DNA of 32,000 nt, taken from contig NC_015067.1 of NCBI RefSeq assembly GCF_000196555.1, positions 1,200,001-1,232,000 on the forward strand, in the 5' to 3' direction. Under the pieces are notes generated by a model. That model did no database searches. It saw only the letters and a list, made by a program, of their open reading frames with translations, and had not been told where the DNA came from. Every line of letters starts with the position of its first letter. The stretch's first letter is position 1. The position numbers were made by a program, and so were the translations under genes. Shown here piece after piece: positions 6,820 to 12,988 of this stretch. The stretch is from Bifidobacterium longum subsp. longum JCM 1217. Lineage in GTDB: Bacteria; Actinomycetota; Actinomycetes; Actinomycetales; Bifidobacteriaceae.

Positions 6820-7668
6820 TCAGTCGATGTTGCCGAGCAGTCGGGCGGCGAGCCGGTAGCGGCGGTCCATCCCGCGCGCCGCCGTCCCCGGATCCGCCTC
6901 CTCGCCCATATGCGCGTCCGTGTCCTCCAAAAGGATCCGCTCCCGTTCCGGATCGAGCCCGTAGCGGCCGGCGAGCGCACGGGAATACTGTCCCACGCCG
7001 TCCCCCTCCGCGATGCGTTCGCCCAACGCGTCCCATTCCTTCTCGTCCGCCAGGGCGAGCATGTTGTCGCGCCGGACCTGCTCGTTGAGCTGGCGGGCTT
7101 TGGCGAGCATGTAGGCGGCCGCCTCCCTGGTGCCGGAGATCTCCTTGCCGCGTTTCTCCTCATAGGCGCGGATCTCGTCCGGATGCCTCCGTCGATGCCG
7201 TTCGAACGCGTCGATCGCGTCCACATGCTTCTTCGACGGTTTCGGCTCCTGCCTCAACCGTTCGATCTCCGCGTCCACCCACCGGTCGAGTTCGCCGAAT
7301 TCGGGATCCCGTTCGCGTTGCAGGTCGCGGCGGGCGAGCATGAACGCGGCCGCCTCCCGGTCCGACGAGATCGGGTCGCGGCGTCGGGCGACGAAAGCGC
7401 CCGCCTCGTCCGCATGCCCCGCCCGCCATCGGTCGAACGCGGCGGCCCACCGGCGGGTCGTGCGGTGTCTGACGTCCCGTTCCTCCAGTTCGAGCAGCCG
7501 ACCGTAATGCCCCTCCATGAGGGAGACGAACCGGGCGTGCCCATCGTCCGTCACGGGCGTGGGCGCGGCGACGTCATCCGGGGCCGCGCCCGTGTTTTTC
7601 GCCTCGTATCGGCCGCCTTCGGGCGTGCCCTTCGGCTTGTGGCTCCTGTTGTTCCTGTCCACGGTCAA
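6820..7668 (-). CDS. Leader-family protein A: conserved N-terminal module plus a unique helical body with internal repeats
   Basis: TTG start preceded by AGGAAAGGGGAA. N-terminus is (M)TVDRNNRSHKPKGTPEGGRYE...PDDVAAP. The body has repeated REAAAFMLARRDL / REAAAYMLAKARQL segments. Confidence 0.7.
   Translation of the reverse strand: MTVDRNNRSHKPKGTPEGGRYEAKNTGAAPDDVAAPTPVTDDGHARFVSLMEGHYGRLLELEERDVRHRTTRRWAAAFDRWRAGHADEAGAFVARRRDPISSDREAAAFMLARRDLQRERDPEFGELDRWVDAEIERLRQEPKPSKKHVDAIDAFERHRRRHPDEIRAYEEKRGKEISGTREAAAYMLAKARQLNEQVRRDNMLALADEKEWDALGERIAEGDGVGQYSRALAGRYGLDPERERILLEDTDAHMGEEADPGTAARGMDRRYRLAARLLGNID
7603..7667. repeat. Left copy of a 65-bp perfect inverted repeat (partner at 9174..9238)
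   Basis: The reverse complement of 7603-7667 is identical to 9174-9238 (tgaccgtggacaggaacaacaggagccacaagccgaagggcacgcccgaaggcggccgatacgag). It covers the first ~22 codons of leader genes A and B. Confidence 0.9.
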
Positions 7669-7686
7669 GACGCCGTTCCCCTTTCC

Positions 7687-8622
7687 TTACTGGTTCTTCC
7701 CGGCCACACAGCCGGCGAGGTAGGTGACGGTCTGCTGTTTCTCCCTCGGAGTCATCGTCAGACCGTATTTCGTTTTGATGCTGACGCGTTTCGCCATGTA
7801 GTCGCACCGGTACGCCTTGTTGTCCGGCATCCAGATGTCGGGCGCGCCCGTATGCTGCGTCAGGTATCCGGATCGTCCGTTCACGTCGATGCCGCTCCCC
7901 TTCGCCATGTTCGCCGGCCCGTCCGAGGCGAGGAGCACGTCCGGATCGTTCGCGTATTCGACGCGTTTCGCCTGATCCCAGTCGCGGGCGCCGGACGCCC
8001 AAGCGTCGTACAGGGACACCACATGGTCGATCTGCACGTCGGCGCTCGTCTTCACGCCCCGTCTGAACCCGATGGTCCCGCCCGTGTACGGGTCGCGCAG
8101 CGTGCCCGACACGACCCGGCATGAGGAGTCCTTCCTCACGCCGGTCATGTCACGGGCGAGGATCGTGTCCCTCGTGGTCGCCTTCCCGCAGCCGGACGAA
8201 GCCCAGCCGCCGAACCGCGTCTCACGGTCGTAGCCGCCCGGCCTGGCGTCCGCCGTGCCTATCCGGCCGGCCGCGTCCAACTGGGCCCGCCATGCGGCCG
8301 CATCCCCCGTCGGGGCCGTGTCCGGGGTTCTCCCCGTGCCCTTCGCCCCCGCGTCCGTCTCCCCGCCCGTATGGACGCCGAACAGGGAGAGCAGGCCCGA
8401 CAGGCTTTTGGCATCCGGGTTGCGTCCCGCATCCCCCTTCTTCGATTCGGCCAATGCGGCCGTGGACGCGTCCGGGTTCCCGACGCCCAGCGTCTCGGAC
8501 ACGGTCCGCCAGCCTCCCGAGGAGACGAGCACGACGACAAGCACGCCCACCATGACCAGGGTCGCGATCATGGACAGCAGCTGCCGGAACGGGCCTCCCC
8601 CATCGCCACGTCGCATGGTCAC
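7687..8622 (-). CDS. Membrane-anchored/secreted DUF1524 (GmrSD C-terminal-like, His-Me finger) nuclease
   Basis: N-terminal TM (LLSMIATLVMVGVLVVVLV). Motifs typical of the actinobacterial DUF1524 family: DPYTGGTIGF, VQIDHVVSLYDAWASGA, ANDPDVLLASDGPANMAKG, WMPDNKAYRCDY, IKTKYGL. Confidence 0.75.
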   Translation of the reverse strand: MTMRRGDGGGPFRQLLSMIATLVMVGVLVVVLVSSGGWRTVSETLGVGNPDASTAALAESKKGDAGRNPDAKSLSGLLSLFGVHTGGETDAGAKGTGRTPDTAPTGDAAAWRAQLDAAGRIGTADARPGGYDRETRFGGWASSGCGKATTRDTILARDMTGVRKDSSCRVVSGTLRDPYTGGTIGFRRGVKTSADVQIDHVVSLYDAWASGARDWDQAKRVEYANDPDVLLASDGPANMAKGSGIDVNGRSGYLTQHTGAPDIWMPDNKAYRCDYMAKRVSIKTKYGLTMTPREKQQTVTYLAGCVAGKNQ

Positions 8623-8915
8623 GCCTCCGGGATGTAGACGGGGGCCTGCACCTGTTCGAGCAGCCAGTTGATCGCGGGCGTCAATCCGGTCATGTTCAGG
8701 CCGAGCACGCCGAGCACGCCCATGATCATGATCGCGGACAGGAGCAATGCGAGGACGCGCAGGCCCATGGAGAGCGCGGACTGGGCGCGGTTGAACGCGA
8801 AGCCCACGAGGAGCGCGATCATGAGGACGATGAAGTACACGCCGAACGCGCCCGGCGCGGTGACGCTCGACCAGAATGCGCGCCAGCCGGTGACGCCGAT
8901 ATCAACAATGCTCAT
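8619..8915 (-). CDS. Small three-TM membrane protein
   Basis: 98-aa hydrophobic ORF. Its stop overlaps the start of the nuclease gene (8619-8622). GGGGGAGG lies upstream of the ATG, and the T of a GCATAG box is 12 nt from the start. Confidence 0.6.
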   Translation of the reverse strand: MSIVDIGVTGWRAFWSSVTAPGAFGVYFIVLMIALLVGFAFNRAQSALSMGLRVLALLLSAIMIMGVLGVLGLNMTGLTPAINWLLEQVQAPVYIPEA

Positions 8916-8936
8916 GGCCTCCCCCTATGCCCCAAA

Positions 8937-8965
8937 GGGGCCCGTCGTACGGGACGACGGCCCCC
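8937..8965. promoter_or_regulatory. Strong hairpin in the divergent 8916-9172 control region
   Basis: ccgtcgt (8942-8948) pairs with acgacgg (8954-8960) around a 5-nt loop, extended by G/C flanks. Confidence 0.35.
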
Positions 8966-9172
8966 GGGGGGGCGAGGGACATGATGGCGGATGCCGATGG
9001 ACGGGATCGGCCCGTGACGGGCGTGGAACGAGAGGCTGCGGGCGTGTTCGACGAAAACGCGCGCCTGCGCGGACCCGACCCGCGGGCCGCGGCCGGCGAT
9101 GCATCATGCCCCGTTGCGCACGCATAGCCTCCGCACGCAACGGGAACCGGAACGGGCGGAGGAAACGGCGTA

Positions 9173-9643
9173 ATGACCGTGGACAGGAACAACAGGAGCC
9201 ACAAGCCGAAGGGCACGCCCGAAGGCGGCCGATACGAGACGAAAGGCGGCGCCACGGGCCCGGATGACGTGAGGCCGCCCACCACGGCCGAAAACGCGTC
9301 CGACATCCTCGACCGGGCACGGGAACGCGGCCTCGACTGGGATCTGCTCGCCGGACGAAGCGAGAACGGGCGCAGCATCAACCTGGACGCGCGGGGTCAC
9401 GGCGACCGGCGCGTCCACGCGGAACCCGACGGGCACGGCGGCTGGGACCTCGTCTACCGGGAATGGAGGAAACCCACATTACGCGAATACAACGGGCCCG
9501 GCATCCACCCGTTCGGCGTATTCGGCTGGATGTCCGACCGGATCAACGGGAACGCGGAGACATGGATCCCCATCCGTCGCGGGCACGCCGCCAATGACGA
9601 CCAGCTGCTCGACGCCGCCGCCGACTGGTGCGGGACCGACTGA
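9173..9643 (+). CDS. Leader-family protein B: conserved N-terminal module plus a unique 110-aa body
   Basis: GGAGGAAA upstream of the ATG. MTVDRNNRSHKPKGTPEGGRYE...PDDVRPP. The first 22 codons are identical at DNA level to gene A. Confidence 0.7.
   Translation: MTVDRNNRSHKPKGTPEGGRYETKGGATGPDDVRPPTTAENASDILDRARERGLDWDLLAGRSENGRSINLDARGHGDRRVHAEPDGHGGWDLVYREWRKPTLREYNGPGIHPFGVFGWMSDRINGNAETWIPIRRGHAANDDQLLDAAADWCGTD
9174..9238. repeat. Right copy of the 65-bp perfect inverted repeat (partner at 7603..7667)
   Basis: See the partner entry. Identity was verified base by base. Confidence 0.9.
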
Positions 9644-9681
9644 AACGGGAAGCCGGCCGACGGCACGCATAGCCATCCCGC

Positions 9682-10320
9682 ATGAGCAAAGACACGCACG
9701 GCCGGACGCACCGGCCCGCCGGACTGCCGAAAGGCGTGGCCGGCACCTACGACAGGAATCCCGGCACGAACGGCGACGACATCGCCCCGCCCATGCCCGT
9801 CCACGACGATCCGGACATACTGCGCCGCGAACTGGCATCCATCCCCCAGCGGGACGGTCCGGAATACGACGGGCTGCGCACCAGGCTCGCCCGCGCCGAA
9901 CTGAGGCAAATGGAATCGAAAGAGAAGCATGCCACCGCCGCCGACATGTTCCGCTCACTCAGCGAAACAGGAGGCGGGACATGGAGTCCGCGAAACGACG
10001 CCACTCCCGTTGTCGGGTTCTGCCATTCACCATACCCCGAACGGAGCAGGGTCGTGGCAATGCCCTCCACCACCGATGATTTCGCACGACTGTCCATGGA
10101 ATATCTCATGGACAATCGCGATCTGCTGTCGAAAGACGGCAACTATCTGGGATTATGGCGCAACCCGGCCGACGACAGATTATATGTCGACGTCTCCGTC
10201 TGCGACATGGACGCGCATGACGTCCGGGACGCATGTGCCAAACATGATCAGATAGCCTTCTGGGACATCCAATTGGGTGAAGAGGTCATCGTGAATCCAG
10301 ACGCGCGATCAGGACAATAA
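9682..10320 (+). CDS. Leader-family protein C: divergent N-terminal module plus a unique body
   Basis: MSKDTHGRTHRPAGLPKGVAGTYD...GDDIAPP. No SD. CGCATAGCC box with its T 12 nt upstream of the ATG. Confidence 0.7.
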   Translation: MSKDTHGRTHRPAGLPKGVAGTYDRNPGTNGDDIAPPMPVHDDPDILRRELASIPQRDGPEYDGLRTRLARAELRQMESKEKHATAADMFRSLSETGGGTWSPRNDATPVVGFCHSPYPERSRVVAMPSTTDDFARLSMEYLMDNRDLLSKDGNYLGLWRNPADDRLYVDVSVCDMDAHDVRDACAKHDQIAFWDIQLGEEVIVNPDARSGQ

Positions 10321-10335
10321 ACAAGGAGAACGACA

Positions 10336-10599
10336 ATGGCACGACAGCTTGAAGGCCTATACGATCCGAAGACCGGAGCCGTAGGCATGGCAAAGTTCAG
10401 CGTCATGATGATGCGTAAACTCAACGGGCACATCACCAGCCGTCAGGAAATCCTGGACATGCAGGACACGCTGGGCCGCGAATGGACGGAAGAGGAGATA
10501 AAGGAGATCCTCAAGGCGAACGGGACGTCCGCCGACGATCCGTCGCAGACAGCCTTACGCGCATCGACATGCGGGGGCACGCATAGCCGTCCCGCATGA
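10336..10599 (+). CDS. Small hypothetical protein (87 aa)
   Basis: AAGGAG 7 nt upstream of the ATG. Its stop TGA overlaps the ATG of the downstream leader stump. Confidence 0.6.
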   Translation: MARQLEGLYDPKTGAVGMAKFSVMMMRKLNGHITSRQEILDMQDTLGREWTEEEIKEILKANGTSADDPSQTALRASTCGGTHSRPA

Positions 10600-10637
10600 G
10601 CAGAGACATGCACGGCCGCGGCCGGACCGCCGGATAG
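10596..10637 (+). pseudogene. Stump of a leader-family gene (MSRDMHGRGRTAG*)
   Basis: Same upstream box and first codons as gene C (gcacgcatagccgtcccgcATGagcagagacatgcacggcc versus gcacgcatagccatcccgcATGagcaaagacacgcacggcc). An indel then gives a TAG after 13 codons. Confidence 0.6.
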
Positions 10638-10705
10638 AGGACGGCCGTCCTGTCCGCGATCGCGCATGCGCCCCCGCGCGCCCGGGACGCATAGCCGGAA
10701 CCATC

Positions 10706-11479
10706 ATGAACGATAAGCCTCTCTTCGAAATCCGGCAGGGCACGACGCCCATGCTCGTCCACACACCACACGCGGGCCGGCTCGTCCCCGACGGATTCGA
10801 CCGCACCCGCCTGACGGACGCGGAAGCATTCGACCAGACATGCGAACAGGTACGAGACCGGCACGCGGACACGCTCGGCCTCATGATCGCCGCCCGGCTC
10901 CACGCAACCATCATGCTCGACCACACGACCCGCATGTGGTGCGACCCGGAACGATACCCCGACGACCGGGAGGAGATGAACACGGCCGGCATGGGCGCCA
11001 TCCCCACACGCGACATCGACGGGCATCCCCTCTACAAGCCCGGACAGGCACCCGGCATGAGGGAACGCGGACAACGGTTCCGCCTCCTGTACACGCCATG
11101 GCACCGCATGCTGCAAGCCCAATGCCGGACCATGCTCGACACGTACGGACGATGCACGATCATCGACGTCCACACCCACCCCAGAGAACCACGCCCGTTC
11201 GAACCGCACGCCGACCAGCCGCGCACCCAGACCATCATCGGCCACAACAACGATCCCGCATCCCGGGCGATCGGGGCACGCGCCGCCGCGCTCCTCATGG
11301 GCCGCGGCCTCACCGTCGGCGTCAACACCGCACACCGGGGCGCCATCACCCCCGACGGCATACACGACATACGGCTCGCCAGCATCATGGTCGAAACCAG
11401 ATGGGACACGGCCGCCGACCCCATGGCGCGCCATGACATCGCCGACGCGATCGCACGCGCCCTGGAGGGACGCGCATGA
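10706..11479 (+). CDS. N-formylglutamate amidohydrolase (FGase, PF05013-like) family zinc hydrolase
   Basis: Family motifs HTPHAGRLVP, TRMWCDPER (D-x-N/E-R block) and IIDVHTH. 257 aa. Confidence 0.7.
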   Translation: MNDKPLFEIRQGTTPMLVHTPHAGRLVPDGFDRTRLTDAEAFDQTCEQVRDRHADTLGLMIAARLHATIMLDHTTRMWCDPERYPDDREEMNTAGMGAIPTRDIDGHPLYKPGQAPGMRERGQRFRLLYTPWHRMLQAQCRTMLDTYGRCTIIDVHTHPREPRPFEPHADQPRTQTIIGHNNDPASRAIGARAAALLMGRGLTVGVNTAHRGAITPDGIHDIRLASIMVETRWDTAADPMARHDIADAIARALEGRA

Positions 11480-12793: not shown

Positions 12794-12988
12794 CCGGCGC
12801 ACGCCGCGGACGAAAACGAAAAAAAGGAGACAAAGAAAAGGAAAAAGAGAAAAAGAGCAAAAGAGGAAAACACGATACGACACCATCCCATCAGCCATCG
12901 GAAAAGAAAAAAGACAGGACACCGACACCCAGGAACACACGCGACGGACATCACACCACAAAACAGCATCACATCAAGGGGAGGGACC
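12794..12988 (+). other. T-depleted, A/purine-rich tract (strong strand asymmetry)
   Basis: No T at all between 12794 and 12875, and only 7 T in about 195 nt by hand count. The core is gaaaaaaaggagacaaagaaaaggaaaaagagaaaaagagcaaaagaggaaaaca, in an otherwise GC-rich window. Confidence 0.8.

Follow-up and report, generated by a model that had tools for sequence, protein, structure and literature searches.

Two divergent genes in a 32,000-nt stretch of the Bifidobacterium longum subsp. longum JCM 1217 genome (NC_015067.1, genome positions 1,200,001 to 1,232,000; hereafter, the window) begin with the same DNA in inverted orientation. These genes, which we refer to as A and B, encode the same N-terminal leader and flank a small membrane protein gene and a nuclease-like gene. 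Based on comparisons among strains and related elements, we favor the interpretation, with a probability of roughly 0.75, that this identity is due to lineage-specific gene conversion between the paralogous 5´ ends and does not reflect a programmed switch. Unless marked as genome positions, coordinates are positions in the window.

The reverse complement of 7603–7667 is identical to 9174–9238, and the maximal exact run is 65 bp, as had been claimed in an earlier interpretation of this DNA made from the letters alone (the sequence-only reading). The arm sequence has no further copy in the 2,385,164-bp single-contig genome. Both arms are coding: each begins at base 2 of its start codon and extends through the end of codon 22, and the left arm encodes the leader residues TVDRNNRSHKPKGTPEGGRYE. 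The start codon is TTG for A and ATG for B; in other strains A also starts with ATG. The weaker similarity claimed for the upstream Shine-Dalgarno regions holds as well: the eight bases directly 5´ of both start codons (AACGGCGT) are identical, and a repeat search returned imperfect arms of 122 nt with 86% complementarity and a spacing of 1480 nt. Past the 3´ end of the arm, about one quarter of the positions differ and A and B soon become unrelated, giving the identity a sharp edge. A and B are two of 11 genes that encode this leader. Of the first 66 nt, 65 are identical between A and B, compared to 61, 60 and 59 for the next best pairs, G-H, B-G and A-G, respectively. Overall, pairs other than A-B match at 46–61 of 66 positions with perfect runs of at most 32 nt, so that the 75–85% identity given for the rest of the family was roughly right. 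The contents of the segment between the arms, a 98-aa membrane protein gene and a DUF1524 nuclease gene (PF07510 match), are also as described in that reading.

We compared 17 B. longum contexts that carry both genes (L021–L027, L040, L045–L048, L050–L053 and L068). Some are on metagenome scaffolds and the others in isolate genomes, among them the complete chromosomes CP118598.1 and CP049767.1. The length of the perfect inverted repeat was found to differ by strain, at 62, 65, 66, 84 or 97 nt. Two of these contexts, L051 and L046 (the latter on isolate contig LKUQ01000019.1), have a B copy that is B-type upstream, continues through the arm into an A-type patch, and then is B-type again. The patch, which reaches about 35 nt past the end of the window arm, is A-type at 11 of 11 diagnostic sites. 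The A copy in L046 and L051 still is A-type at all but one of the diagnostic sites, indicating that the patch is non-reciprocal. Smaller patches were observed in the start-codon context for L025 and L040. A 60-nt core showed no variation in 34 of 34 copies from contexts carrying both genes. In three contexts from which A has been deleted (L041, L049 and L055), the B arm has 1, 1 and 2 substitutions, respectively, and the next 74 nt have none; given the small numbers and the relatedness of these contexts, changes in the B arm after loss of A are only suggestive. Collectively, these patterns point to recurrent, non-reciprocal copying between the 5´ ends of A and B.

Related elements lack the perfect repeat. 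In a sister lineage found in gut metagenomes (L056–L063), the layout is the same, B´ being on the strand opposite to that of the membrane gene, nuclease gene and A´, with an extra 100-aa gene between B´ and the membrane gene. B´ shares 71.5% protein identity with B over its full length, as expected of a true orthologue, and the segment from A to the membrane gene has ~81% DNA identity. The sister arms (L056, L058 and L063) are 2.1 kb apart and match at only 57–59 of 66 positions, with perfect runs of 22–25 nt. Comparison of the window arms with their orthologues gave 56–61 of 66 matches for A-A´ and 58–60 of 66 for B-B´, versus the 65 of 66 for A-B. The window arms thus are nearer to each other than to their orthologues, a signature of concerted evolution. 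Another species of the genus (G043) retains A, the nuclease gene and the membrane gene at 86% DNA identity and lacks the block corresponding to 8935–10678, which comprises the B upstream region, B, gene C, an 87-aa open reading frame (ORF) and a decayed leader stump. The upstream region of the membrane gene in G043 directly joins the upstream region of FGase, an N-formylglutamate amidohydrolase-family gene, and without the block there is no inverted pair. Going by these comparisons, the divergent A/B layout is old, with a stable orientation, and perfect identity of the arms is confined to the B. longum lineage. The recent gene conversion proposed in the sequence-only reading is supported by the variable tract ends, the non-reciprocal patches and the degenerate sister arms. 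We also noted that the membrane-nuclease side (7690–9160) is more polymorphic among strains than the B-C side (9245–10700), with pairwise differences of up to 33 in 1526 nt (59–78 for L041) and at most 21 in 1458 nt, respectively.

A and B are divergent paralogues in a mobile-island family whose members attach the same ~40-residue leader, predicted to be disordered, to unrelated bodies. In the model we favor, host homologous recombination would have homogenised codons 1–22 of both genes within the B. longum lineage through non-reciprocal copying, and repeated conversion would have produced tracts that differ in length among strains. The layout, with the membrane gene, nuclease gene and A transcribed away from B, appears to be ancestral and stable, and this recombination would at most rarely invert the 1.5-kb segment as a by-product.

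Concerted evolution of the tufA/tufB pair in Salmonella enterica and Escherichia coli was reportedly described by Abdulkarim and Hughes in 1996 and by Hughes in 2000. In Salmonella, gene conversion that depends on RecA makes the inversely oriented tufA and tufB genes co-evolve, and in one class of conversion events roughly half are accompanied by inversion (Paulsson et al. 2017; PMC5485169). As for A and B, non-reciprocal conversion holds two inversely oriented paralogous coding stretches of the same replicon close to identity, with variable tract ends, inversion as a possible by-product and no dedicated recombinase. However, the homology in the tuf case covers whole 1.2-kb genes separated by hundreds of kilobases, whereas here it is restricted to the first 22 codons (62–97 nt) of otherwise unrelated genes, 1.5 kb apart on a mobile island. 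We infer both the RecA dependence of the A/B conversion, by analogy with tuf, and its direction.

The reference orientation was found in 17 of 17 aligned B. longum contexts as well as in both diverged relatives, so the comparison with related genomes that had been suggested as a check revealed no flip. Four further short-flank look-ups each covered 23 or 24 of the longest contigs; the contig sets overlap, and hence no total is given. In these look-ups, the membrane gene was always upstream of B, and the gene downstream of the nuclease was always A or, at the A start codon, an IS200/IS605 element, and never B. A scan of genome contigs for the B junction gave no match beyond the source genome, and a scan of viral contigs gave one contig, in the reference orientation.

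Some observations weigh against conversion in a locus of fixed orientation. One metagenome contig, L042 (ULRO01091065.1, 5204 bp, assembly GCA_900523075.1), carries the predicted inverted junction. Positions 1–1637 of L042 correspond to the reverse complement of 9171–7554 at 96.3% identity and are followed, unbroken, by the arm, B, C, FGase and D up to window position 12857 at 99.3% identity, with a full switch from A-type to B-type at the arm in the map of diagnostic sites. L042 stops at the outer edge of the other arm, and a collection look-up found its nuclease allele in this contig only. We judge a real but rare inversion to be about as likely as a misjoin made at the repeat during assembly. 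If real, the inversion presumably arose by crossover within the arms, and orientation would not be strictly fixed. An exact-pattern metagenome scan for the inverted junction missed L042 due to a single-nucleotide polymorphism in one flank, which renders the negative result of that scan void; L042 was retrieved by a metagenome scan for the B junction. In addition, assemblies show the majority orientation only, look-ups that take the longest contigs first may under-sample mixed populations, and flipping at low frequency within a culture is possible. Finally, the arm of the window lineage is a mosaic of A´-like and B´-like positions and gives no direction for the conversion, A to B or B to A. The reference orientation nevertheless appears to be ancestral and overwhelmingly predominant, with inversion being mechanistically possible and, judging from the contexts compared, no regular feature of the locus.

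If the segment were inverted by crossover in the arms, the A and B proteins would stay the same, B would come to lie directly behind the nuclease gene, and A would lie behind the present B upstream region. Since the entire divergent control region lies within the invertible segment, both promoters would be carried along. The inversion put forward in the sequence-only reading therefore did not stand as a working switch, given the single orientation in isolates and long contigs, though its junction was encountered in one short metagenome contig. Likewise, the proposed exchange of payloads applies to the body behind the nuclease gene (A, or B together with the genes downstream of it) and not to the promoters, which would travel with the segment.

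An unlikely alternative is that host RecA flips the 1.5-kb module at a meaningful rate, exchanging the payload behind the nuclease gene and generating population heterogeneity with no dedicated recombinase. The 65–97 bp of perfect homology exceeds the roughly 25–30 bp that is the minimum for RecA-type recombination, and arm-to-arm conversion is evident. Conversion between inverted tuf copies often is accompanied by inversion (PMC5485169). L042 has the exact junction predicted, with the complete A-type to B-type switch, and the one DNA-pattern search that sampled B junctions without bias had one inverted contig among four. However, no inverted context was detected among the isolate genomes or long contigs inspected, and the end of L042 at the other arm, together with a nuclease allele seen once, makes a misjoin a live alternative. 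With the proteins unchanged and both promoters moving, any phenotypic effect of the inversion would be subtle, and the sister lineage has the same orientation with arms too degenerate for recombination.

We also considered the possibility, which we regard as similarly improbable, that leader-coding DNA acts as portable homology by which host recombination reshuffles leader-tagged payloads. The candidates for such events are the inverted contig L042 and rearrangements in a second contig, L043 (OQHF01002147.1, 10170 bp, 2.2x coverage), which was compared with 9180–9723, 10576–11033 and 34104–34299 in window numbering. In L043, the body of B follows sequence of leader gene G (window position 34201), namely its upstream region and ~16 initial codons, with the G/B switch point within a 32-nt run common to both leaders, and gene C is lost through a join of the C leader (9723) to the leader stump (10576). 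L043 represents either leader-mediated rearrangements or a chimeric contig of low coverage. Given the 2.2x coverage and a join within the shared 32-nt run, the contig is perhaps chimeric, and we did not use it as proof of body swapping. Were leader DNA to act in this way, the A/B pair would be a recombinase-free flip-flop coupling the membrane-nuclease operon to A in one state and to the B-C-FGase-D operon in the other, and the same recombination could also yield deletions and body swaps when the leaders involved are co-oriented.

Selection at the nucleotide level, rather than recombination, could also maintain the identity, though we consider this quite doubtful. It might act, for example, on a site bound by protein or RNA, on an element for ribosome binding or pausing inside the gene, or on a promoter-like single-strand module that takes in the first codons. 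In its favor are the AGG arginine codons and AGGAG motif of the leader and the 32-nt perfect runs shared with leader gene G; E and H also have such a run in common. Yet the regions upstream of the 11 leader genes are unrelated, similarity beginning only ~10 nt 5´ of the start codon, and the sister lineage has 7–9 differences in 66 positions between orthologous arms. The variable tract ends, as well as the A-type patch that in L046 and L051 extends past the leader core, are what copying would leave, and not a fixed selected site.

Programmed site-specific inversion of the Hin/Gin, Fim or shufflon type, with the arms as sites and a recombinase encoded elsewhere, is extremely improbable, since, despite the classic switch anatomy of inverted repeats bracketing a promoter-containing segment, the genome encodes no serine recombinase, none of the tyrosine type lies within about 125 kb, the identical stretch ends at different points in different strains, the sister arms are degenerate, B is absent from G043, and A is deleted or disrupted by insertion sequences (IS) in many strains that keep the remaining locus; together, the lack of a recombinase, the variable ends and the degenerate arms in relatives exclude a classical site-specific switch. 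These searches agree with the earlier claim that no recombinase is nearby: PF00239 (serine recombinase) gave no match in the genome while giving matches in 12 of 14 control genomes, a Pfam scan of the larger ORFs in the window detected no recombinase, and the nearest tyrosine recombinase genes (PF00589) are at genome positions 1,074,017 and 1,353,773, ~134 and ~145 kb from the repeat (~1,208,000). Tyrosine recombinase genes also were noted as two apparently identical trios at genome positions 998,647–1,001,101 and 1,353,773–1,356,227, inverted, ~355 kb apart and around the island region; their Pfam scores are pairwise identical, and they look like two copies of one recombinase-trio element.

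Known switches include the S. pneumoniae SpnD39III/ivr and Mycoplasma pulmonis hsd loci, Hin/Gin and the R64 shufflon, and the repeats of type I restriction-modification hsdS shufflons also are inside coding sequences. The A/B locus resembles these systems in that inverted repeats within the 5´ or internal parts of paralogous genes bracket a segment, and in that a flip would re-pair gene halves with expression signals. In contrast to the shufflon-type systems, which have an adjoining dedicated recombinase, conserved crossover sites and both orientations readily seen, the A/B locus has no recombinase, variable ends, one dominant orientation and proteins that would be unchanged by a flip.

The features of the locus are listed in Table 1.

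Table 1. Features of the A/B locus and flanking genes (window positions).
Feature	Position	Strand	Description
Gene A	6820–7668	-	282 aa, TTG start; leader (residues 1–39, predicted disordered) and all-helical body
Left extended imperfect arm	7559–7680	-	86% complementarity; includes remainder of ~40-aa leader and 8 nt 5´ of start
Left perfect arm	7603–7667	-	Gene A start-codon base 2 to codon 22
TTGAC at gene A start codon	7664–7668	-	Recurrent IS200/IS605-family insertion site in other strains
Nuclease-like gene	7687–8622	-	Membrane-anchored GmrSD_C/DUF1524 nuclease-like protein; PF07510, E=1.3e-7
Membrane protein gene	8619–8915	-	98-aa integral membrane protein; first gene of minus-strand operon
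Divergent control region	8916–9172	.	257 nt, between membrane gene and gene B
Right extended imperfect arm	9161–9282	+	From repeat search
Gene B	9173–9643	+	156 aa, ATG start; leader (residues 1–41, predicted disordered) and small alpha/beta body
Right perfect arm	9174–9238	+	Gene B start-codon base 2 to codon 22
Gene C	9682–10320	+	Next leader gene, 212 aa, same orientation as B
FGase	10706–11479		N-formylglutamate amidohydrolase-family (PF05013)

Gene A has a third-position G+C content (GC3) of 0.86 and is called as a 282-aa gene in public contigs. Its protein gave no Pfam, NCBIfam or PDB-sequence match and only a marginal match to a PHROG family of unknown function (E=0.0022). The AlphaFold2 (AF2) model of A has a mean predicted local distance difference test score (pLDDT) of 76.8 and 12 helices, and no PDB fold was matched by Foldseek at E<0.001. 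Gene A contains two internal repeats, in segments around ISSDREAAAFMLA and ISGTREAAAYMLA (proteins P0003 and P0005); P0003, a 212-aa allele, lacks the stretch between them, consistent with deletion between these repeats. The exact B protein is listed in 173 collection blocks; it too has no match in Pfam, NCBIfam or PDB sequences, and its AF2 model (mean pLDDT 61.7) has no significant Foldseek match. Residues 1–39 of A and 1–41 of B have pLDDT <50 in the AF2 models, and both leaders thus are predicted to be disordered.

The PF07510 match of the nuclease-like protein covers residues 168–295 with 32 bits versus a Pfam gathering cut-off of 23, making the protein a putative member of the GmrSD_C/DUF1524 nuclease family. 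The protein has a hydrophobic N-terminal segment, and public contigs call it as 309 aa from an ATG at 8616. As the nuclease gene ends 18 nt 5´ of A on the same strand, A probably is co-transcribed with it and very likely is the last gene of the membrane-nuclease operon. The membrane protein has a weak DUF6113 match below the cut-off and a match to phrog_2272 at 1.4e-4, and its exact sequence is listed in 1331 collection blocks. A simple scan of the control region (8916–9172) found no consensus promoter. Part of this region is a decayed gene: 8981–9085 on the plus strand retains 35 codons of the 100-aa gene, of which the sister lineage has an intact copy (L056:2352–2654), residues 1–35 of the L056 protein aligning here with 63% identity by tblastn against the window.

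At the start of gene A, an IS200/IS605-family element is found directly after TTGAC in L045 (4753–6137), L050, L051, L053, L071, L073, L075, L077 and L080. The inserted element carries a TnpB gene and, in L080, a Y1 transposase gene, and its right end contributes an A such that the ATG of gene A is recreated. In the window, the site is empty and the gene A start is TTG. L051 has a second copy of the element within gene C, again beside TTGAC.

All 11 leader genes are encoded within 94 kb (genome positions 1,148,467–1,242,034), with none elsewhere in the genome. The leader of ~40 residues, R-x-H-[RK]-P-x-G-x-P ... G-x-[YF]-[DE] ... DV-x-PP, is not covered by any Pfam, NCBIfam or PHROG model, and a homologue search with the leader only returned six proteins, all alleles of A or B. 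Perfect runs of 22–32 nt are common to leaders with unrelated bodies (A, B, D, E, G and H), and the leader codons (e.g., 9179–9215) include AGG for arginine, which we take to be unusual for a genome of 66% G+C, and an internal AGGAG. These features hint at family-wide constraint or exchange at the nucleotide level.

The neighbourhood of the locus includes CHAP and NlpC/P60 wall hydrolases, a large intein-bearing ORF, an IstB gene, and two EcoRI-type methyltransferases around a GmrSD_N-HNH nuclease. Public contigs with identical genes are from B. longum assemblies, among them JRWN01, which corresponds to strain VMKB44 (PMC4537262). A plasmid collection contained only distant DUF1524 matches, in another context, on B. 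longum megaplasmids.

Conserved N-terminal modules are known for the mycobacterial PE/PPE proteins, LXG and other polymorphic toxins with orphan cassettes, and the phage T4 internal proteins with their capsid-targeting leader, and one study is said to describe gene conversion in PE_PGRS genes. The leader family resembles these in that unrelated bodies are joined to one short N-terminal module that is conserved, that a single element has many such genes, and that the conserved 5´ DNA provides homology for recombination, deletion and cassette exchange, but the leader, which might act in targeting, in transfer along with the DNA or in regulation, has no match to the domain models of any of these.

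Gene conversion would explain the striking repeat without a new mechanism, and the A/B pair is a new example of a known process, the concerted evolution of inverted paralogous segments. It would document short-tract gene conversion, with mapped tracts of 62–97 nt, in Bifidobacterium, an actinobacterium not known to have MutS/MutL mismatch repair. Genome assemblies are likely to break or be misjoined at the repeat. A leader-tagged gene family not described so far, on a widespread mobile island of a gut commensal, would have conserved 5´ ends that are recombination-active, which bears on how such islands may diversify their cargo.

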